Source: Naegleria gruberi (Eukaryota). Taken from it: DNA of 64,000 nucleotides. The stretch's first letter is position 1. Every line of letters starts with the position of its first letter. A model generated the notes under the pieces. It was given only the letters and a program-made list of their open reading frames with translations. It did not search any database and was not told the DNA's origin. The DNA lies in NCBI GenBank assembly GCA_000004985.1, contig GG738856.1; one strand, given 5' to 3'. Of this stretch, positions 15,587-52,393 are shown one piece after another. The position numbers were made by a program, and so were the translations under genes.

Positions 15587-18001
15587 TTATTGTAAATCCT
15601 TCTCTTGTTCAGAGTGGAGGGCACGAATGAAATCTTCTTTCAATATTTGTGAAACATCACTAATTAGAAAATTTTCTTTCGTCCTTAGTGATACTCGTGG
15701 AGCAATTATTGAGACTCGAGTGAGAAGAAATAAATTCAAACGTTCAATAACTTGCTCGACAGTGTCATTCTGTGATATGTCAATTAAAACAGAAACACGA
15801 GAACCTTCCAATTTGATTTTGATTGTATGAATTTGAATTTTCTCTGTGGAAACCTTGACTGGTGTTTGATGCTGCATAGGTGGTGAATCGTTATAATATA
15901 TCAAAGTCATCTCTAGAGGAGAAAAGTTGTCAGGATAGAGAGGTCTTAACTCAATAGGAAATTCAGGAGTTTTCATTTGGTTATTAAAAACTTGTCTAAT
16001 TCTGAAATATTCTTCATTGGCTTCACTTGCATATTTGTTCTGATTACATTTTAGAAAGTAAGAAATTCGCAGTTCGTGCGCAGGTTCAAAATTTGGTTCA
16101 CTTTGCAATACTCTATCAATGTAACCAAGTACCTTTTCAGTGTGTTTCAACTTTGCATGAATGGAAGCTATGAATATTAAAATTGTAGAATTATTGGAAT
16201 AGTTTTTCAATAATTGCTCAGCATACGAAAGACCATTCTCATATTCATTGAAAATAACTGATAATTGAGAGGCAATCATACTCAAAACATCTGATTCCTC
16301 AAAATGGTCCAGCATTTGCTTGAAAATTTTCTTGGCTTTTTCAATCTCTCCAATTTCAGCATAGTACTGAACTAAATAAACATAGATTACCAAGCAATTG
16401 GGTTCCAATTCTCTTGCTTTTAGAAAATCTGGGAATGCTTTAAGCTTTTCTTCTTTTGTTTTACCAACTTGATAAATAATTATTCCTCTTTTCAAGTAAT
16501 AATGAGCTAAATCATCTAAACTGTTCCCATATTTTTCCAATATTTTAGTGTATTCAGCAATAAGGATGAATGTTGAGCCCATTTGCTCCAAAATACCCAA
16601 TTTGGCATTAATGACAGGAATGGAGAAATGTGATTTCAAGGAATTATCCAAACATTGTAGAGCTTGCTTAGTGTTACCCTTGTAGAGATGTAAGAATCCC
16701 TTCAATTGCTCCAACACATGACCACTGTTCGGATCTTGGTGTGTATTGAATTTTCTTGAGAGAAATTCCAAAGACTCAAGCAGTGTTAATGCCTTGGAGA
16801 TGTTTGGTAACTTTCCTCCATAAACTCTCTCCCAAACATGTATATCATCTCTTGATAAAAACATGGCCAAAAGCAAGCCAACACAGTATTTGATTCTAAT
16901 TTCAACAGCATCATCAATAGATAATTTCATATAATATTTGTCAAGTATTTCTATTGAATCTTCAATACTATTGGCATTCAAATGAGAAAGTATTCTATTC
17001 ATTTCTAAAACTCCTGTAAATTCTCTATCACCTATTATTTGGAGATTGTTGCATATGATTAATCTAAGATTATTAATGGTTAATATTTCCATTGCATTCA
17101 ACGATGATAATCTCTCCTTCTTATCATATGTTAGAAAGGATAATAATAGTAGCTCAAAGAATTGGTCAACCTCCCTCGTAGAGATTTCATTGATGAATTT
17201 TGCTTGAAACACTTCACTCCATGTATTCTCAATGGTTGCTTGTGTATTTTCGAGTTTTAAATTTAGAAATCGAAAATCACATTCATCTACAATATCCTTA
17301 AAACTAATTGTTGACTCGGGGAAGAGTATTTTGAAAAGTACAACACCCATACTCCAGCAATCGACTTTGTAATCATAGAGTCTATGTTTAATTGATTCAG
17401 GTGGTAAATATTCAAATGTTCCCCTATGTGTTTTCTTGGTGTTTTCAGTTTGTAAGGTTTCTCCAAAATCAGCCAATGCAATCTCAATAAATGTTTCATT
17501 TTCTTCATCAAATGATTTGACAAGAATGTTTGAAAGTTTGATATCACAATGAACAAGATTATGTTTGTGTGAAATATTGACAGCAATACATAATTGTGTC
17601 ATGATTTGACCAATTAGAAAATCAGTCAATCTCTTTCCTCTTGATGTGAAATATCTTTCAATAAATGTTTCCAAATCTCCATACTTGTAAAATGGCATTA
17701 CAATCCCAATATTGGAATGATGATTAATGTATTCCAAACTCTCTACCAAATATTCACATACAATACTCTTTCTCAAATTAAATATCTTCAATTCCTTTTC
17801 AATAATGAATTCTCTTTCCTCTTCTTCTAATAAATTAATAATTTTCAATGCAATTTCATGGTTTGAACAACGATCAAAGCATCGATATACAACTCCGTAA
17901 CCTCCTTCTCCAATAAACAGCGGATTCAAAAACCTGTCACAAAAAGAAGAAGGGAATGCATAAGGTTGACGTGACATTTTTTTGTAATGTGACACTGTCA
18001 T
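15587..18001 (-). CDS. Ser/Thr protein kinase with C-terminal TPR-like repeats (paralog A)
   Basis: GEGGYGVVY, IALKII, HCDIKLSNILV, ADFGE, YLPPES. TPR-like helical repeats in the C-terminal half. The likely true start is the second ATG at 17977, which has an A-run context and aligns with paralog B. Confidence 0.85.
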   Translation of the reverse strand: MTVSHYKKMSRQPYAFPSSFCDRFLNPLFIGEGGYGVVYRCFDRCSNHEIALKIINLLEEEEREFIIEKELKIFNLRKSIVCEYLVESLEYINHHSNIGIVMPFYKYGDLETFIERYFTSRGKRLTDFLIGQIMTQLCIAVNISHKHNLVHCDIKLSNILVKSFDEENETFIEIALADFGETLQTENTKKTHRGTFEYLPPESIKHRLYDYKVDCWSMGVVLFKILFPESTISFKDIVDECDFRFLNLKLENTQATIENTWSEVFQAKFINEISTREVDQFFELLLLSFLTYDKKERLSSLNAMEILTINNLRLIICNNLQIIGDREFTGVLEMNRILSHLNANSIEDSIEILDKYYMKLSIDDAVEIRIKYCVGLLLAMFLSRDDIHVWERVYGGKLPNISKALTLLESLEFLSRKFNTHQDPNSGHVLEQLKGFLHLYKGNTKQALQCLDNSLKSHFSIPVINAKLGILEQMGSTFILIAEYTKILEKYGNSLDDLAHYYLKRGIIIYQVGKTKEEKLKAFPDFLKARELEPNCLVIYVYLVQYYAEIGEIEKAKKIFKQMLDHFEESDVLSMIASQLSVIFNEYENGLSYAEQLLKNYSNNSTILIFIASIHAKLKHTEKVLGYIDRVLQSEPNFEPAHELRISYFLKCNQNKYASEANEEYFRIRQVFNNQMKTPEFPIELRPLYPDNFSPLEMTLIYYNDSPPMQHQTPVKVSTEKIQIHTIKIKLEGSRVSVLIDISQNDTVEQVIERLNLFLLTRVSIIAPRVSLRTKENFLISDVSQILKEDFIRALHSEQEKDLQ
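17456..17710 (-). repeat. Left arm of a 255-bp inverted near-identical tract (kinase core)
   Basis: The reverse complement matches 18321..18575 with about 5 mismatches by hand alignment. Confidence 0.85.
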
Positions 18002-18032: not shown

Positions 18033-20519
18033 ATGATCAGTCAAACTCAACTTCCCTCATGTTTTGGCAGTCGTTTTTCCAATCCTACACCAGTTGGAAA
18101 AGGAGCATATGGCACCACCTACTCATGTATTGATACACAAAATGATGATCAACAAATAATTGCTTTAAAAGTGATGCAACCAAGTGAAGGGACTGGTGAT
18201 ATTGCACTTGTAGAGAGAGAAGAAGAAATTTTCACAGCCATGAAGAATGTTCAGTGTGAATATATTGCCAAGAGTATGGAATTTCTAAATTATTTCGAAA
18301 GTGATGGTAGTGGTGGTTACATTGGAATTGTAATGCCATTTTACAAGTTTGGAGATTTGGAAACATTTATTGAAAGATATTTCACATCAAGAGGAAAGAG
18401 ATTGACTGATTTTCTAATTGGTCAAATCATGACACAATTATGTATTGCTGTCAATTTATCACACAAACATAATCTTGTTCATTGTGATATCAAACTTTCA
18501 AACATTCTTGTCAAATCATTTGATGAAGAAAATGAAACATTTATTGAGATTGCATTGGCTGACTTTGGAGAAACCTTTCGAACTGATCACACAACCAATA
18601 CAGATAAAAAGGGAACAGATGACTACTTACCACCAGAGGCCTTTGATGGCAAGTACGGATTCAAGATTGATTGCTGTAGTATGGGTGTTGTCCTTTTCAA
18701 ATTGCTTTGTCCACCAACTGATGTATCTATTAGAAACTATTTGGGAGAATGTCAAACTAAATACAAACACAAACAGCGTAACATTTTCTTTAGCCATTAT
18801 TGGTCAAAGAAGTTGGCGAAATACATGTCTGGTATTGAATATCTCAAAGATCAACCATTACTACTTTCAATGGTGAATGGATTTCTAACTTACGACAAGG
18901 AAAGTAGACTCACCATATTGAATGCTCTCGATCTATGTTGCATGATTATTATGATGCACATACATGGACAGAATAATAGTGTAAACTTAGACAATTTGGA
19001 GAATCCTTCACCTGTTTTGATACTATATGATCAATTATCATTGATTTCAGATTTCAATAATGGTTCAATGGAATTGTTATCCAAATATTACAATGAAACG
19101 AAGCAAGGAAATAGTTTAGGTATTGCATACATGGTAGGATTAATCTTTTGTAGCAGTCTATTGAAAAGAGATTTCAGAATTTGGGAATTTCAATTTAATT
19201 TACAAACACCCATTACCGATACAGCAACATTGGACAAAATGATACAAGATCTTGATCAACTATCACTGAAAATTAAGACCAATGAGCCATACTTGGGCTT
19301 TATATTTGAACAATTACATGCCATTTCACTAATGAACAAGAAAATGCCTGAAAAATCTTTACAAAGATTGGAAAACTCTACAAATTCATTCTTCACATTG
19401 GCATGCCAAAAAAAAAAGTTACTACTTGTAGAATTATTGAATGGAATGACTTATTCGTTGGTAGATGAATATTCCAAGCTAATCAAACTTTATGGTGACA
19501 AGAGTATGCTCTCTGGATACTTTTATTACAAAAGGGGTGTAATGTTATTCACCCTTTCTAATGATCATCAAAATGGTATAGCTGACTTGATACATGCAAG
19601 GAATTTATCACCAAATAGTTTGGGATTATATGCAATTATGGTAAACTGCTTTTTAACTATTGGCAGTATTGAAAATGCAAAACAAGTGTTTGAGCAAATG
19701 TTGTTATTGTCTGAGCACTTTGAGATTAATAGGTTAAACTTTATTGCAATGTTTTTATCCAATTGTTTAGGTTATTTGGATAAAGCATTGGAATATGGTG
19801 AAAAACTTACTAGTCAAGAACTGTATAGCAAGGACCCTGTATTACTTCTCTTTTTATCCAGAATCTGTAGTAATAGAGGCGATAGCTCAATGGAATTGGG
19901 TTATATAGAAACGGCATTGGATATAGATCCACATTGTTATCAAGCTCACCAAATGAAAATCCTATTTTATAGAGCAGCTTTGGATTTCACAGCAGAAAAA
20001 GAAGCTTTGCTCAAGTATACAGCTCTGAAAAGGCAAAACCTTTTGCATACCTCTGAATTTCCCATTGAACTTTTACCACTATTACCAGATGGCTCACCTC
20101 TTCCAATATTATTACTAAATGAACCTGAAAAGGATGTTACAAGAATTAAGGAAATTACTTTTAAGGAAGCTGAGAAGACTGTTCAACAATTTGAAACCAT
20201 TCAACCATCACTAATGCAAGAACCTACCACAAATGATTCAATTCTTTCACCAGAAATCATCATGCAAATCAAAGTGAAATTCAAAGGGAAAAACAATGCT
20301 GTTTTCATTGATATTTTGAAAACAGATACAGACATTCGTCAAGTATTAGATCGCTTGAATAAGATTGGAAACGAAAAGAGTACAGCATATGTTAATAGAG
20401 TGGCATTTTCAATAGTGAAAGACGATGATTGTATTTTAATTACATCAATTCATCAATTATCTAAATATGATGAAGTAGTGGCTCTCACAAGTGATGAAGA
20501 AAAAGAGTTTTGGGCGTAA
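18033..20519 (+). CDS. Ser/Thr protein kinase with C-terminal TPR-like repeats (paralog B)
   Basis: GKGAYGTTY, IALKVM, HCDIKLSNILV, ADFGE, YLPPEA. Same architecture as paralog A. Confidence 0.85.
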   Translation: MISQTQLPSCFGSRFSNPTPVGKGAYGTTYSCIDTQNDDQQIIALKVMQPSEGTGDIALVEREEEIFTAMKNVQCEYIAKSMEFLNYFESDGSGGYIGIVMPFYKFGDLETFIERYFTSRGKRLTDFLIGQIMTQLCIAVNLSHKHNLVHCDIKLSNILVKSFDEENETFIEIALADFGETFRTDHTTNTDKKGTDDYLPPEAFDGKYGFKIDCCSMGVVLFKLLCPPTDVSIRNYLGECQTKYKHKQRNIFFSHYWSKKLAKYMSGIEYLKDQPLLLSMVNGFLTYDKESRLTILNALDLCCMIIMMHIHGQNNSVNLDNLENPSPVLILYDQLSLISDFNNGSMELLSKYYNETKQGNSLGIAYMVGLIFCSSLLKRDFRIWEFQFNLQTPITDTATLDKMIQDLDQLSLKIKTNEPYLGFIFEQLHAISLMNKKMPEKSLQRLENSTNSFFTLACQKKKLLLVELLNGMTYSLVDEYSKLIKLYGDKSMLSGYFYYKRGVMLFTLSNDHQNGIADLIHARNLSPNSLGLYAIMVNCFLTIGSIENAKQVFEQMLLLSEHFEINRLNFIAMFLSNCLGYLDKALEYGEKLTSQELYSKDPVLLLFLSRICSNRGDSSMELGYIETALDIDPHCYQAHQMKILFYRAALDFTAEKEALLKYTALKRQNLLHTSEFPIELLPLLPDGSPLPILLLNEPEKDVTRIKEITFKEAEKTVQQFETIQPSLMQEPTTNDSILSPEIIMQIKVKFKGKNNAVFIDILKTDTDIRQVLDRLNKIGNEKSTAYVNRVAFSIVKDDDCILITSIHQLSKYDEVVALTSDEEKEFWA
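18321..18575 (+). repeat. Right arm of the 255-bp inverted near-identical tract
   Basis: Encodes IGIVMPFYKFGDLETFIERYFTSRGKRLTDFLIGQIMTQLCIAVNLSHKHNLVHCDIKLSNILVKSFDEENETFIEIALADFGET. Confidence 0.85.
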
Positions 20520-26174: not shown

Positions 26175-27453
26175 TTAATCCTCTTCATCTCTACAACAAA
26201 GACAACAGAAACAATAGGCAATAGGTAACAAAATATAACTGAAACAATTTAAACAATTTGTTCCCTGTTTTGCTTGGCTATTTTCTTGAATGAGTTTAAC
26301 ATTTAAATATTTTCTGAATGATTTCTCATTTTCTAAATTACAATTCTCAAATATAATTTCTTTCAGAGATGGATTGTTCTTAATAAATTGATGTTCATCT
26401 CCCAAAACACAACTGATGAAATGAATCCTTTCTAAATTTGGATAATTATTAGAAATTGAGAAATCAATATTTTGAGTTGTAAACTTCTTATTTCGAAGTG
26501 TCAATTCAAAGAGTGATTCCATTTTCAATGAAAATAATGAATTTAAATCCACTTCACCTTTATCCAAATCCAACTTTACAATTTTCAATTCCTTAATATA
26601 ATTAAGAATCTCCAAACTGTCATCCGTCAAAGTTAATTCCCTCAAATTCTTGTTAAATATACCAGAATAATTTAATTTTGAAAAATCCAAATTATATACT
26701 CTTCGAATTCCGAGTTTAGTCAACTTGGAAAAAGCTAAAGGAAACAACTGAGGTGCTTTTTCAATAATTTCCTTTTGATTTCTGAAATGTAGAGCCAAGT
26801 CAAGTTCTTTCAAATTTAACTTCACTACTCATAATATTGTGAAAATCTGTTTCATGGTCAACTTCAATTTTCAAGGTTTTCAAACTTTTCATTGGTGAAA
26901 TATTTGGCGTCTTGGGAAATCCAGTTAATTTGTATTCTTCCAGATTGAATGGAATTTTGTAAAATTCATCTAGAATATATTGTGGAATTGAACTATCAGA
27001 AAGGTTAATTTCCAATGCTTTCAGTTGACTATAATGAGTTTGAAACCAATTGATCAATTCATTCTTGAATGATTTCATAAATAGTTTGAGATTAGTTACA
27101 TTTCCAATATATCTTGGTAAATAAACTGCTGATCCAAGATTTGATGATTCAATAAAATTGCATTCTCCATAAAGAGAAAGAGTATCAACCCTTGAAAAAC
27201 CATTCATTTCGAATAATTCACAGGGTATGTTTCTAACATTTATCAATTTCAATTTTGTAATATTGGTCTGTTTATCTTTTAACTGATTAATAGTTTTAGT
27301 GAGTTTGGTTGCATGATCTATTTTCAATTCGAATCCGAGGTTTTGCTTTGCTTGATAGAAATTGTGATTTACGACTCGAAAACGAAATGTTTCTCTTCCT
27401 TCTAAAAAACAAAGAATCAACTGCACAACATCTACAGTCAGAAAGTGCTGCAT
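26175..27453 (-). pseudogene. F-box-like / leucine-rich-repeat gene with an apparent 1-nt frameshift near 26800-26830 (pseudogene or assembly error)
   Basis: ORFs 26800..27453 and 26175..26825 are both LRR-like and overlap in different frames. No intron of plausible length reconciles them. The C-terminus is Cys-rich (CLNCFSYILLPIAYCFCCLCCRDEED). Confidence 0.55.
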
Positions 27454-28412: not shown

Positions 28413-28940
28413 TTTGATGATATGCTGATGGTTGTCTTCTTTGAGAAAAAAAGGCTTTGTTTTTTGTTATTACTAGTCGGAAGTAGATAACCCTTGAGAA
28501 AGCAGTGTGATGGCTTTTTTTTTTGAAATTTTTCGGAAGATGAGAGGAAAGGCATCAATCATGCCAATGAAAGTTTTCAATAATTTTATTGTTGTGTGAT
28601 GACATTTAATGGTGATGACTTGAAGTCAAGTTGACATTTTGGGTAAGCAAACAATTAAGAGAGTCAAGTTCCATTAAAATTTATTTTAAGGATGAAAAGT
28701 GTTAGTAATTTCCAACTTCCGATGATGGTTTTAAGAAGTAGTTTTGCTTAGTACGTTGAGCCATTGGGTTTTCAATCCCATGTATCATTAAAGTGGATAA
28801 TTTACGTAGTGATTATTGAGGAATTTTGAAAACATCATGTTTCCAATCCACCTTCTGAGTGATGTGTACATTATATTTTAATAAAATGTACAAGCAAACA
28901 TAAATGTTTATTAAGCGACCAACAGATATTGATTTCCAAA

Positions 28941-31475
28941 TTAAAAAACTATATCTAAATCCTTTAACTTGCCAAATAACTCTTTTCCAACTTTCTTTTC
29001 CAGGTCTTCTAAATCTTTGAACCCCTCTTTATCAGATGTTCTTTTCGTTATGATATCATTCGCAGCTTGTTTGCCAATACCAAAGTTTTCATATCCTTTT
29101 GCTTCACACTCATTAATATGAAGATAATTGGTGGAATATAAATATTTCATATGCTCAGATAGTGTTCCGAAATGTTTGGAAAAGTTATCTTTGTAGATCA
29201 TTATCAAATTATCGGGAAGTTTTTCTGATTCGGGCATATCTGTAATTGATTTTCCTGTTACAATAACTGTGATGTTTGTTACTGGAATTATCTTATTTTG
29301 TGTTGGTAAATCAAAACTATTGTTTTTGATTATTTCTACCTCTTCTATTGTAGAGAAATCCAGTTTTGCTGTTTTTGAATCAGCCCATTTACATTGTAAA
29401 TGAAACACACAATCACTACCATTAAGCTCATTTTTCATACCCAACACAAGAACATCACCAGCCGAGGCATCAGGGACATTTTTGATGATATAAACTCCCT
29501 TAGTGTTATTTGATGGATTATAAGTAAATGAAGTAGAACCAGATTTTAGATTAAAATATTTTCTCGTTGACATATCACTCTCCAATCTTTTGTCATGTGT
29601 ACATTTGTAACATGAGTGGATTTTCTCTATCTTTAAATTTGCTGTTGCTGGATTCATTTTAGCAAATGGAAACAATTCTTTCAATGTCAACGATTTCTGA
29701 TCCTTCAATAATGTTAAAATCAAATAATAATATTCAAGAATCACATCCTCCCAAGATGATACAGAAGAATCTGAATTAAATAAATTGTTATAAATTTCCC
29801 TTGGCTCAAGTGTCATTAATGATGGAAGAATTACTGGAGGATAAGTGATCAAAAATTCTTCCTGGCCCTTAGCCTTTTCTAACATTACCAATCCTTGATT
29901 TTCTAAATCAGACCAAGTCAAATCATCTTCTACTTTATCATTTTTTGCTACCACTCTTCTTGTAACCACAAGTTGTAATATCTTATTTTTAACTTTAGAA
30001 GAGATAAATGAAACATCATATTTTTCTAATATTTTTGTCTTTGCTTCCCACCAAGCTGCTTGAGGAAGCAAATCTCTGAACAATAATTGCACCAAATAAA
30101 ATTCTATTCCTCTTGCATAACCCCCAAATGTCCTTAAATAATGTTTAAATGAAACATTTTTTCTCCATCCTTGCAATTTGTTGTATGTTTGGACCAAATC
30201 GTCCATAATCTGATACAATTCTGTTGTTGGTAACATAGGCTTTGTTGGAATGTATTTTGGAGAATAAGCACTTCCCAAAAAACTCTTTTTTATGCCTGTA
30301 TAGTAAGTTCCCACAAATAGAGGATAAATAATGCCACAGACTGGATGCTGCATATACTGTCCAATAGACGAAATAATTACATCAAGTGGAGATGGTCTAT
30401 TAATGTGTGAATTAATTATTTGTACCTCATCCATACCAATAAAGAAGTTGGTATGTTCGTTTGGAGAAATTACAGCATTACAGGCTATTAATATAGTTTC
30501 AATATCGAGAACCTTTCTTTTCCCAAAAAATTCATTCCATTTTCGTAACAACCCAGTAAAAACAGAGGTTTCCCCTTTCGAACCTGTAAAAGCACAAAGT
30601 ATTGAATAAACAATTCTTACACACAAACCATTCATGGGGTTTGGTTCATTCATAACGTCCATCTTTGTTCCATTCCCAAATGATATAAATAACGGAAAAT
30701 ATTGTTTGTTGTTGTACATATCAAGACCAATCTCCTGCAATATCCTTGATTTTCCAATTCCAGGAGCTGCAGCTATGAATGGGAGCTCAATATTATCTCT
30801 TAGGGCCTTTTTTTCATTTTCTATCAAGGCAGTATAAGGTCTGTAGCTTTCCATAAACATATTTACAACCTCTTCTCTTCCAATAAATTTGAAATTAGAT
30901 CCAAAACCAAAAACAACAACCGAAGAAGACTCCACTATATTTTTAGGTTCAAATATACCAACAACTTTGTCAGTTCTATCAGTCATAGCACCATTTGTGC
31001 TAATTACAAGCTTGATGAACGCTGAAATATCTTCAGCGTCTATTGATTTGTTGGATTCTTCAATTTCTACTTGTTTTCTTTCAACAAACTCACTAATCAA
31101 CCAAACAGCAATGGGCTCTGCAACACTTTTCACCATTATTTTTCCTTCGTCCATCAAGGAGTCGACCATGGACTGTTTGGCTGTTTCTGGTGTTCCATTG
31201 CTTTTGATATTTGTTTCATAGGCATTAATAGCAATTAATAAATGGTTTCCGTTGAGAGCACTCAAAGGATATCTTCCATTTTGGTTTCGTTCTTTTTTTA
31301 CACAATCAATGGCTTCATCTTCAAAGTATAAATCATCCCGAAGAATTTCTAATACTTTATCATGATTCAATTTCATCATACCATTTAGTAATAAATTTGG
31401 TTTTGGTTTTTTAAACAATACCGAAGAAAACCCAATTGTTGGAGATTGACTTCTTTTCTTAATATCCTTGAACAT
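28941..31475 (-). CDS. Orphan 844-aa protein: P-loop NTPase, possible PD-(D/E)xK-like nuclease motif, C-terminal helix-hairpin-helix
   Basis: Walker A FIAAAPGIGKSRIL. Walker B-like NFFIGMDEVQ. GDVLVLG...x20...FHLQCKW (D...QxK). HhH-like FGIGKQAANDIITKR...DLEDLEKKVG. Confidence 0.55.
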   Translation of the reverse strand: MFKDIKKRSQSPTIGFSSVLFKKPKPNLLLNGMMKLNHDKVLEILRDDLYFEDEAIDCVKKERNQNGRYPLSALNGNHLLIAINAYETNIKSNGTPETAKQSMVDSLMDEGKIMVKSVAEPIAVWLISEFVERKQVEIEESNKSIDAEDISAFIKLVISTNGAMTDRTDKVVGIFEPKNIVESSSVVVFGFGSNFKFIGREEVVNMFMESYRPYTALIENEKKALRDNIELPFIAAAPGIGKSRILQEIGLDMYNNKQYFPLFISFGNGTKMDVMNEPNPMNGLCVRIVYSILCAFTGSKGETSVFTGLLRKWNEFFGKRKVLDIETILIACNAVISPNEHTNFFIGMDEVQIINSHINRPSPLDVIISSIGQYMQHPVCGIIYPLFVGTYYTGIKKSFLGSAYSPKYIPTKPMLPTTELYQIMDDLVQTYNKLQGWRKNVSFKHYLRTFGGYARGIEFYLVQLLFRDLLPQAAWWEAKTKILEKYDVSFISSKVKNKILQLVVTRRVVAKNDKVEDDLTWSDLENQGLVMLEKAKGQEEFLITYPPVILPSLMTLEPREIYNNLFNSDSSVSSWEDVILEYYYLILTLLKDQKSLTLKELFPFAKMNPATANLKIEKIHSCYKCTHDKRLESDMSTRKYFNLKSGSTSFTYNPSNNTKGVYIIKNVPDASAGDVLVLGMKNELNGSDCVFHLQCKWADSKTAKLDFSTIEEVEIIKNNSFDLPTQNKIIPVTNITVIVTGKSITDMPESEKLPDNLIMIYKDNFSKHFGTLSEHMKYLYSTNYLHINECEAKGYENFGIGKQAANDIITKRTSDKEGFKDLEDLEKKVGKELFGKLKDLDIVF

Positions 31476-49849: not shown

Positions 49850-52393
49850 ATGCTTGGACAACAACAATCGGATTCGGAACGTAAATTTCTCTCTCGTTTG
49901 ATCAGCTCGCAAAAACAATCACAACAATATGTTGATGAGGGATTGAAAGCTAAAGCAAGAGCCTTGATTCCTGTGGATCAAATTCATGAACGAGCACAAG
50001 AAAAATACAAGATGAAAAAGGAGAATGATCCAAACTCTAATCCATTGTTGGAACGTTTCATCATTCAAGAGTTATTAAATTGGTTTAAGAGTGATTTTTT
50101 CAAGTGGGTTAATAATCCTCCTTGTGATCATTGTCAAGCAACAAATACAAACGGAATGGGAGGAGTTGCTCCTAATGCTTCGGAACAACAAAATTTAGCT
50201 GGTATTGTTGAATTGTATTCATGTCCAAATTGTAGACAAACTACCAGATTTCCTCGATATAATTATGTTGGAAAATTATTGGAAACTAGAAGAGGAAGAT
50301 GTGGTGAGTGGGCTCAATGTTTCACTTTAATGGCCTCAGCTATGGGATATGAAGCAAGATATGTTCTTGATTGGACTGATCACGTTTGGACTGAGGTTTA
50401 TTTGGATGGATGGTGTCATGCTGATTCATGTGAAGGAACACTGGATTCACCAATGATGTATGAAGCTGGATGGCAAAAGAAACTCTCTTATATTATTGCT
50501 TTCTCTGCAGAGGAAGTAATTGATGTCACAAAAAGATATACTCAAAATTTCTATTCTGACGACTTCCAACAAAGAAGAAGAGCTCAAGGCATTAGTGAAC
50601 CTTGGTTAGAAAGCACATTGAAAAACATTAATGAGCAATTGCATGTATTTATGCCACCTTACAGATCTACCTTCCTTAAAAATAGACAAACAAAGGAAAA
50701 AGATCAAATTGAACAAAAGCAAAAATCCTCGTCTGACCTCACATTGGAAGAACAAAGAGGAAGAATATCCGGCTCTGAAGAGTGGAAGAAGTCTCGAGGA
50801 GAAACAGGCAAAACATCTTGTGATGACGATAGCTGTCCTGTTCCTCAATATAAGTTAGAGCAATCTGTTGTGGATAGCCTTAAGCTCTATACCAACAAGA
50901 TTGAAGTGAATAAGAAAACAAATTCTCTATCTTGTCTAGGAAATTGTAGAGTTTTGAATGATAATTCAATCATAATTACAGAAAACAAGACTTCTCAATG
51001 CGGTTCAATAGTGTTTAATGATCAGTTGGATGTGCGTGATATGGTTATTGAATTCTCGTTCCAACTTACAAAGAATGGAACTGGAGCCGATGGGTTTGCC
51101 CTGATTATGCACTCCAATGATAATGCTGCACAAATGGGAGCTCCTGGTAGTGGAATGGGATATGAAGGAATACCAAACTCTATTGCAATCGAATTTGATA
51201 CTTACCAAACCTTCGATAGAACAAGAGATCCAGATTCAAACCATATCTCTATCCAAACAAGATATGACAAACCAAACTCTGCACATCACGACTATTCTCT
51301 CAAATGTACAACAAGTCTTCCTATTACTCTTTCAGATGGAAAAATTCACAACTGTCAACTTCTTATCCAAGGAGGGAAATTATCTATTATTTTAGAGAAG
51401 GAATATTTGATACTGAAGGATGTATCTGTTGATTTTGAGAGAGTATTTGGAAAGGGAAAGAAATTTAGAATTGGCTTAACTGCTTCAACAGGTGGTTTAT
51501 CAGAAGAACACAAAATTGTAAATTGGTCCATCCTCACAAAAACAACTAGTACTTCATATGTTCTCTTTGACCAAGTGAACATTGCAGGTGTTGAGAAAAA
51601 ACTCAAGGAATTGATTTCTCGTGAACCTAGTCCTACAATTACAGATATACAAGTTCAATCGCTTTTGAATGTGAGTGGTTGGAAAATTACAGAAATTTCC
51701 TTAGTGAATTCTATCCTCAGACAATGGAAATTCGAAAACCTCTTCCCAATTATTGACTTGTTGCGTATTGCCATTGTAAACAACAAGACTGTCTCAGATA
51801 CATTCTCCAAGCTTTTCATACAGAATCAAAAGGACCATTTATTATTGAATATCTTTAACAAGACTAGTGAGGCAACAGTTGAAAATTCGTACGCCTACTG
51901 CCTTGTATCTCTTAGACTTATTAACAATCTCTTTAAGGAAAGGTTAGGTAGAGTCTATGTTAACAAGTTCACAGACAAAATCTTGGAACAGTTGACAGAA
52001 AGCAAAATTTTCACCTTACAACCAACCTCAAAACCTGCATATAGACAAACGTACGGTGCTCTCCTTCACAATCTCTCACTATTATTTGTAAATGAGCTTC
52101 CAGATGAAGAAATGATGGTTAGGTTATTCTCCACCTCCTTTGAAATGTTGGAAAAAGAGATTTCAAGAGAAGACTTTGATGAAAGTGCTTGTCAATATGC
52201 TATCAAATCGTTAACAATACTTCTCAAGGTTGATTCAAAGGAACAACCAACCGATGAAGAGGACAGTATCATGCATGGTCTTGCCTTAAGTATGGACATT
52301 CATAGTTTAGTGTTGAAATTGAAGACAAGAAACCTTGCCAATGTGGATTTGTGTTCTCTTCTCAACTCATTAGAAAAACAGTTTGGAAATTAA
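49850..52393 (+). CDS. PNG1: Peptide:N-glycanase (PNGase, transglutaminase-like core) fused to an L-type lectin domain and a PUL-like C-terminal domain
   Basis: Zn motif CDHC...CPNC. Catalytic RRGRCGEWAQCF, DHVWTEVY, HADSCE. Lectin motifs ADGFALIMH, IAIEFDTYQ, DPDSNHISI. PUL-like WKFENLFPIIDLLRIAIV. Confidence 0.85.
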   Translation: MLGQQQSDSERKFLSRLISSQKQSQQYVDEGLKAKARALIPVDQIHERAQEKYKMKKENDPNSNPLLERFIIQELLNWFKSDFFKWVNNPPCDHCQATNTNGMGGVAPNASEQQNLAGIVELYSCPNCRQTTRFPRYNYVGKLLETRRGRCGEWAQCFTLMASAMGYEARYVLDWTDHVWTEVYLDGWCHADSCEGTLDSPMMYEAGWQKKLSYIIAFSAEEVIDVTKRYTQNFYSDDFQQRRRAQGISEPWLESTLKNINEQLHVFMPPYRSTFLKNRQTKEKDQIEQKQKSSSDLTLEEQRGRISGSEEWKKSRGETGKTSCDDDSCPVPQYKLEQSVVDSLKLYTNKIEVNKKTNSLSCLGNCRVLNDNSIIITENKTSQCGSIVFNDQLDVRDMVIEFSFQLTKNGTGADGFALIMHSNDNAAQMGAPGSGMGYEGIPNSIAIEFDTYQTFDRTRDPDSNHISIQTRYDKPNSAHHDYSLKCTTSLPITLSDGKIHNCQLLIQGGKLSIILEKEYLILKDVSVDFERVFGKGKKFRIGLTASTGGLSEEHKIVNWSILTKTTSTSYVLFDQVNIAGVEKKLKELISREPSPTITDIQVQSLLNVSGWKITEISLVNSILRQWKFENLFPIIDLLRIAIVNNKTVSDTFSKLFIQNQKDHLLLNIFNKTSEATVENSYAYCLVSLRLINNLFKERLGRVYVNKFTDKILEQLTESKIFTLQPTSKPAYRQTYGALLHNLSLLFVNELPDEEMMVRLFSTSFEMLEKEISREDFDESACQYAIKSLTILLKVDSKEQPTDEEDSIMHGLALSMDIHSLVLKLKTRNLANVDLCSLLNSLEKQFGN

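Follow-up and report, generated by a model that had tools for sequence, protein, structure and literature searches.

The window considered here is a 64,000-nucleotide stretch of contig GG738856.1 of the amoeba Naegleria gruberi, an AT-rich sequence (G+C ~32%) whose minus strand carries, at 28941..31475, an uninterrupted open reading frame (ORF) of 844 codons plus a stop, opening with ATG. By exact look-up, its translation matches GenBank EFC47111.1 / XP_002679855.1 over the whole length with 100% residue match. This protein, NAEGRDRAFT_65017 (UniProt D2V837), is annotated only as ‘predicted protein’, and the single-exon, 844-residue ORF proposed in an earlier, sequence-only reading of the window agrees with the deposited model. 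By this identity, the window is nuclear DNA of N. gruberi. Behind an N-terminal head lies a predicted module of ~660 residues, comprising an ORC/Cdc6-STAND-like AAA+ ATPase, a lid, a winged helix, an Mrr-like PD-(D/E)xK nuclease, and a ComEA-type helix-hairpin-helix (HhH) domain (Table 1). As argued below, NAEGRDRAFT_65017 very probably belongs to the modular proteins of Crinkler/RHS type (CR), in which it represents a heterolobosean sub-clade with a non-canonical helical head.

Table 1. Position of NAEGRDRAFT_65017 and of its predicted domains in the window.
Feature	Coordinates	Strand	Basis or key residues
Whole gene NAEGRDRAFT_65017	28941..31475	-	ORF list and exact look-up
Head domain, residues ~22–165, all-helical	30981..31412	-	AlphaFold2 helices 30–162; 44% identity to NAEGRDRAFT_52188
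AAA+ ATPase core, residues ~184–415	30231..30926	-	Conservation; Foldseek; AAA_22, AAA_16 and ATPase_2 matches in homologues
Helical lid, residues ~416–505, then winged-helix-like domain, residues ~506–555	29811..30230	-	AlphaFold2 and Foldseek; boundaries inferred
Restriction-endonuclease (REase)-fold domain (PD-(D/E)xK, Mrr-like D...QxK), residues ~556–785	29121..29810	-	Putative catalytic E576, D674, Q694, K696
ComEA-type HhH tail, residues ~786–844	28944..29120	-	Family profile against PDB; HHH_3 in homologues

The domain layout was derived from an AlphaFold2 model built on an 81-sequence alignment (predicted local distance difference test, pLDDT, 88.4; predicted template modelling score, pTM, 0.81), and the same 81 aligned homologues supplied the conservation counts given throughout. 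In the model, residues 1–24 are disordered and residues 30–162 all-helical, followed by a P-loop α/β core (~225–410), a helical lid (417–505), a small helix/strand domain (~514–553), an α/β domain (556–780), and a series of short helices (786–844). The motifs picked out in the sequence-only reading are present, namely AAPGIGKS at 235–243, FFIGMDEVQ at 344–352, GDVLVLG at 673–679, FHLQCKW at 691–697, and GIG at 799–801, and they are more than chance resemblances because they are conserved across the aligned homologues.

Two segments of the ATPase core, PGIGKS (238–243) and GMDE (347–350), are near-invariant in the family alignment. Within the Walker A motif, G239 is found in 64 of 66 sequences, G241 in 67 of 67 and K242 in 66 of 66, with S243 also conserved; in Walker B, the counts are 64/65 for D349 and 60/65 for E350. 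A conserved pre-motif, SFGxxFxFxGR (190–200), lies upstream of Walker A. T390 (59/65), within a G389–T390 pair, occupies a plausible sensor-1 position, and R455 (57/61) ends a GGxxR lid motif at a plausible sensor-2 position; this lid motif presumably resembles the ‘GDAR’ sensor 2 of Cdc6. R287 is likewise conserved (66/68), and no candidate for an arginine finger could be identified in the AAA+ domain. A Foldseek search of the PDB with the whole model was led by ORC1/Cdc6 and ORC subunits, including ORC4 (E 1.7e-5, prob 1.0), in alignments of 420–470 columns that comprise the base, lid, and winged helix of those chains. The next matches were RuvB, FtsH, the NB-ARC proteins NRC1 and NRC3 (prob 1.0 for RuvB, FtsH, and NB-ARC as well), and TnsC (E 1.2e-3). 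Sequence similarity to ORC/Cdc6 is negligible when the family profile is compared with the PDB (E>0.1). On the predicted structure, residues ~184–555 are best described as an AAA+ base, lid, and winged helix of the ORC/Cdc6-STAND type.

The suggestion that GDVLVLG and FHLQCKW mark the core of a restriction endonuclease is borne out at moderate strength by fold matches together with the conserved D674, Q694, and K696, and residues ~556–785 are accordingly modelled as a probable REase fold. The α-β-β-β-α-β core of the PD-(D/E)xK superfamily is found in the model, and its motif appears as an acidic residue at the start of strand 2, a (D/E/Q)xK element on strand 3 and a glutamate in the upstream helix. 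The glutamate, E576 (55/63), lies within the first helix (575–589); D674 (51/57) directly precedes strand 675–682; and Q694 (53/60) and K696 (49/57) stand at the end of strand 688–695. N666, E714, and K717 are conserved as well, the latter two on the helix that follows strand 688–695. All of the putative catalytic residues are retained in NAEGRDRAFT_65017. The structural match list for this domain is headed by AF1548 (score 7.2), VC1899 (6.7), and the LlaBIII nuclease domain (6.4), followed by N.BspD6I (5.8), the R.BspD6I small subunit (5.6), Cap4 (5.6), Can2 (5.6), MspJI (5.5), NgoMIV (5.3), FokI (5.2), AspBHI (5.1), EcoT38I (5.0), and Avs3 (5.0). Foldseek matches for the same domain model are not significant alone (best MspJI, E 0.043, prob 0.75), with REases over-represented in the list. 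The D...QxK variant is reportedly a signature of Mrr-type enzymes, which fits the two best-defined top matches, both of them Mrr-like.

The terminal GIG-type DNA-binding motif was confirmed at the level of the family. In the PDB, the HhH regions of EEPD1 (3.8e-9) and ComEA (3.5e-5) are matched by the family profile, and homologues match HHH_3; NAEGRDRAFT_65017 alone reaches only a sub-threshold match to TIGR01259 comEA (E 0.055). It keeps I787–N788, the GIG at 799–801, A805, R812, F819, and D824–L825 of the diagnostic HhH pattern I-N...L...GIG...A..II..R...F...DL; the second hairpin is degenerate.

Sequence comparisons with NAEGRDRAFT_65017 alone against Pfam, PADLOC, NCBIfam, and PDB sequences returned nothing useful. 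A word-indexed homologue search recovered a metagenome copy of 99% identity together with a single N. lovaniensis protein, and querying it with the family alignment did not raise the yield above 2–4 proteins. By contrast, when 1.84 billion representatives were searched exhaustively with a HMMER profile, 86 relatives came up at E<=1e-3, including ten at E<=1e-30, so that the description of the protein as an orphan has to be abandoned. Close relatives, with 28–56% identity over the full length, are all heterolobosean where an organism name is given. They include N. lovaniensis C9374_014550 and C9374_013474, N. fowleri FDP41_004768 plus fragments, three Willaertia magna proteins, and a 243-residue N. 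gruberi fragment on a tiny scaffold; N. gruberi thus has one full-length copy and one fragment. Distant relatives, with ~20% identity, are full length and colinear, and are all eukaryotic where the source can be identified: Haplosporangium, Mortierella, the chytrid Gaertneriomyces, Synstelium, Jimgerdemannia, a Rhizophagus irregularis protein that UniRef names ‘Crinkler family protein’, and a protein on a metagenome contig with eukaryotic neighbour genes. The distribution is patchy, covering Heterolobosea, early-diverging fungi, and a few other protists, and the paralogues show turnover, with some truncated and heads swapped. Phage records, IMG/VR viral contigs, and GTDB prokaryotic genomes (one per species) yielded no relatives, the last two scans being pattern-seeded and of limited sensitivity; within that sensitivity, no recent prokaryotic or viral acquisition is detectable.

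The link to Crinklers emerged from a Pfam scan of 50 family members. AAA_22 was matched in 12 of them (best E 3.2e-5), HHH_3 in 10 (1.4e-12), AAA_16 in five (3.1e-6), and ATPase_2 in three (4.3e-5), and four carry the Crinkler effector N-terminal domain PF20147 (best E 2.7e-15). Two of these, P0026 from Mortierella and P0028 from Haplosporangium, score 57.5 and 56.8 bits on PF20147 against a cut-off of 24.6. In P0028 (857 residues), the Crinkler domain spans 9–110 and HHH_3 spans 803–856, and the stretch between them aligns to residues 187–831 of NAEGRDRAFT_65017 (BLASTP E 1e-14); the protein was also matched by hmmsearch (E 3.3e-9). The corresponding BLASTP comparison with the Crinkler-headed P0026 gave E 1e-18. 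The heterolobosean clade and the fungal members share ~20–22% identity, and profile–profile alignment of the heterolobosean clade with the fungal/other clade by hhalign gave a probability of 100% and E 3e-75 over 627 columns (residues 184–832). As this alignment is colinear, the similarity reaches well past the P-loop to the lid, winged helix, nuclease domain, and HhH tail. The closest homologues outside Heterolobosea bear Crinkler heads on a homologous module, and homology of the C-terminal module to bona fide Crinkler-headed proteins is one of the properties by which the CR class is recognized.

The head itself departs from this pattern. Its residues 22–149 (31029–31412, minus strand) are 44% identical to residues 43–172 of a second N. 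gruberi protein, NAEGRDRAFT_52188 (P0067; E 3e-22). A word-indexed search with the head alone found nothing and missed this 44%-identical protein. Because residues 22–58 are homologous to the second protein, the N-terminal extension of NAEGRDRAFT_65017 is coding. A profile of six heads had no match in the PDB and noise only in Pfam, and an impression by eye of a SAM-like head was dropped, as no test supported it. The other ~460 residues of NAEGRDRAFT_52188 are unrelated to NAEGRDRAFT_65017 and have no Pfam, NCBIfam, or PDB match; it may be another protein that joins this head to a different, unfamiliar effector. A 99.7%-identical copy of the N. gruberi gene on metagenome contig ERZ929261 carries a frameshift near codons 59–63 (window ~31290–31310), which probably reflects either faulty assembly or a lesion particular to the strain; its called protein has 791 residues from an internal ATG, and the upstream part is 93% conserved in another frame.

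Paralogues in Willaertia and some others share this helical head, and further paralogues have a different N-terminal region. In N. lovaniensis C9374_014550, which is 56% identical from residue 178 on, a weakly matching PB1-like β-grasp N-terminus (E 0.016) replaces the helical head, and UniRef names the N. lovaniensis counterpart ‘PB1 domain-containing’. More distant members have Crinkler or SAM heads. One head is thus found on different C-termini and different heads on a homologous module, the mix-and-match of heads and enzymatic bodies that PMC5289972 describes as the defining CR architecture. The C9374_014550 gene (L001, 10001–12680) probably contains an intron, because its gene model spans more DNA than the coding length, and its neighbours (Arf, patatin, glutathione peroxidase, and a kinase) are unrelated.

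A ubiquitin-like Crinkler header and the LxLFLAK motif are absent from NAEGRDRAFT_65017, whose modelled N-terminus is all-helical and has no Pfam match even at E<=10. It is therefore not a classical Crinkler, yet it falls inside the wider CR class, in which headers also include unrelated α-helical domains that are not ubiquitin-like (Zhang, Burroughs, Vidal, Iyer and Aravind, 2016, NAR 44:3513, as summarised in PMC5289972). The same source, again citing Zhang et al. (2016), states that a P-loop nucleoside triphosphatase (NTPase) with an REase makes up more than a quarter of CR C-termini and that CR proteins are present in free-living eukaryotes. The Crinkler lead of the sequence-only reading was correct, given the colinear homology to the module of PF20147-bearing proteins. 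Its proposal of an undescribed eukaryotic DNA-targeting NTPase was not: the protein is no new kind but belongs to the described CR class of NTPase-REase-HhH proteins. Overall, the domain calls and the Crinkler lead stood, and the orphan status and the claim of novelty fell.

A mechanism for NAEGRDRAFT_65017 as a whole can be proposed with fair, though far from firm, confidence. The HhH tail, which is (HhH)2-like, and the winged helix would anchor the protein to double-stranded DNA irrespective of sequence. Binding and hydrolysis of ATP by the AAA+ domain would then bring about oligomerisation or a conformational switch, which would position or license the Mrr-like nuclease, and the resulting DNA cutting would be the damaging activity. 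The head may set where, or with which partners, the module acts. This scheme, in which we infer the ATPase and nuclease activities and how they are coupled, as well as the target and the route of delivery, agrees with how CR NTPase-REase modules are interpreted in PMC5289972. The biological role most likely lies in conflict: the protein would either damage the DNA of other cells as a toxin or act cell-autonomously, as a nuclease for defence or suicide.

The strongest competing explanation, although doubtful, is that the protein is a cell-autonomous immune sensor resembling NLR and Avs proteins. Its STAND-like NTPase would oligomerise on an invader, e.g., a giant virus, and activate its own nuclease, and the DNA would be destroyed (abortive infection); the helical, PB1-like, and SAM heads would be intracellular adaptors rather than delivery domains. 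Action inside the amoeba is consistent with the absence of an evident signal peptide in the sequence, with the adaptor-type heads (PB1-like and SAM) of relatives, and with STAND/Avs proteins among the structural matches. However, no repeat or sensor domain (LRR, TPR, or WD40) follows the NTPase, the top structural matches are ORC/Cdc6 rather than STAND, PADLOC has no match, and relatives with true Crinkler heads fall in a class described as effectors. It is possible, but unlikely, that the heterolobosean clade as a whole is not an exported toxin but a eukaryotic cell-autonomous counterpart of bacterial Avs/NLR-type defence, with the heads as signalling or assembly adaptors. If true, a deep-branching eukaryote would possess an immune NTPase with a nuclease effector, built on the same module that pathogens use in Crinkler effectors.

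Two further explanations carry hardly any weight beside assignment to the CR class. A housekeeping role in replication or repair, as a divergent ORC/Cdc6-like initiator or a repair nuclease, would suit the lead of winged-helix-containing ORC1, Cdc6, and ORC4 among the structural matches and the presence of HhH DNA-binding and nuclease domains, but it is highly improbable in view of the restricted distribution, the paralogue turnover with truncations and head swaps, the negligible sequence similarity to ORC/Cdc6, and the Crinkler heads of the nearest non-heterolobosean homologues. It is just as improbable that the gene is a mobile element, whether active now or until recently, with a transposon ATPase and nuclease analogous to TnsC and TnsA. 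The proposed transposon origin of CR NTPase-REase modules (Zhang et al., 2016, as cited in PMC5289972), the TnsC match in Foldseek, and, with little weight, the lack of synteny within ±10 kb between this locus and that of N. lovaniensis speak for it, but against it stand the low copy number in N. gruberi, the lack of relatives in phages and, in pattern-seeded scans of limited sensitivity, in prokaryotic genomes and viral contigs, and the locus itself. There, repeats around the gene, whether terminal inverted or flanking direct, do not exceed short chance-level matches, the window holds no second copy, and no transposase or integrase is found among the neighbours, so that the gene is not a recognisable mobile element, and this reading was rejected.

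The neighbours are ordinary eukaryotic genes, encoding a phosducin-like protein, a calponin-homology-domain protein, a fatty-acid hydroxylase, kinases, a PAS-cyclase, and a proline dehydrogenase, and tRNA and Rfam scans of the whole window returned nothing. NAEGRDRAFT_65017 is flanked by spacers of 528 bp (3′) and 219 bp (5′). These had been called comparatively long, and they do exceed many of the gaps between neighbouring long ORFs (30–190 bp), but they are not extreme, as other gaps in the window measure 650–1750 bp. The 3′ spacer (28413–28940) contains no tRNA, Rfam match, or notable repeat; its only ORF of at least 80 residues overlaps the start of the phosducin-like gene, and the spacer may simply be 3′ untranslated region. 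Elsewhere in the window, an 847-residue ORF (49850–52393, plus strand) combines transglutaminase-core and Rad4 domains (peptide N-glycanase-like) with an L-type (legume-like) lectin and a PUL domain, a domain combination that seems unusual among proteins of this kind. Two overlapping minus-strand ORFs without a family match, 26175–26825 (216 residues) and 26800–27453 (217 residues), are probably one gene split by a short intron or a frameshift. Two protein-kinase genes of ~800 residues each, 15587–18001 (minus) and 18033–20519 (plus), lie head to head with 31 bp between them, and this spacing suggests a shared bidirectional promoter.

The assignment gives a concrete annotation to a ‘predicted protein’ of N. 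gruberi, a model amoeboflagellate, and to the related proteins of N. fowleri, N. lovaniensis, and Willaertia, as predicted ATP-regulated, DNA-anchored CR nucleases. The module of NTPase, winged helix, REase, and HhH is not captured by Pfam, PADLOC, or NCBIfam, and the family alignment could seed a profile. The exchange of a helical for a PB1-like head between close Naegleria species illustrates, on a small scale, how modular CR proteins are in free-living organisms. The case is relevant to the role of Crinkler-like proteins outside pathogens, and the current picture of the CR class is left unchanged by these results.

Comparison with known systems places these features in context. With ORC1/Cdc6 and STAND NTPases, NAEGRDRAFT_65017 shares the AAA+ base, lid, and winged helix and the Walker A and B motifs, and its T390 and lid residue R455 may correspond to sensors 1 and 2; it differs in lacking significant sequence similarity and an identifiable arginine finger, in its fused nuclease, and in its patchy, lineage-specific distribution. 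Compared with the Mrr-like PD-(D/E)xK nucleases (AF1548, PDB 1y88; the nuclease domain of the Type ISP enzyme LlaBIII), identity is just 7–14%, a ~70-residue insertion (~590–655) separates the first helix from the core strands, and the domain is fused to an AAA+ ATPase rather than to a helicase/methylase or a DNA-reading domain. Like McrBC, Avs3/4, and Tn7 TnsC+TnsA, the protein appears to couple an NTPase to an REase-fold nuclease, and McrC, Avs3/Avs4, and TnsC are among its structural matches. Unlike these prokaryotic ATPase-nuclease systems, it is a single polypeptide with a eukaryote-type head, and no sequence relatives were detected in prokaryotic genomes, viral contigs, or PADLOC.

The closest parallel is with CR/Crinkler effectors whose C-terminus consists of a P-loop NTPase, in some cases a helix-turn-helix (HTH), and an REase. 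Classical Crinklers differ in their ubiquitin-like head and LxLFLAK motif, in place of which NAEGRDRAFT_65017 has a helical head of no known family; its secretion or translocation is unsupported, and no classical oomycete Crinkler was seen among the matches with an identifiable source. In common with CR effectors, it has a modular head and an enzymatic C-terminus in the same order of NTPase, winged helix/HTH, and REase, its module is colinearly homologous to that of PF20147 bearers, many members share the HhH tail, and both are found in free-living eukaryotes.

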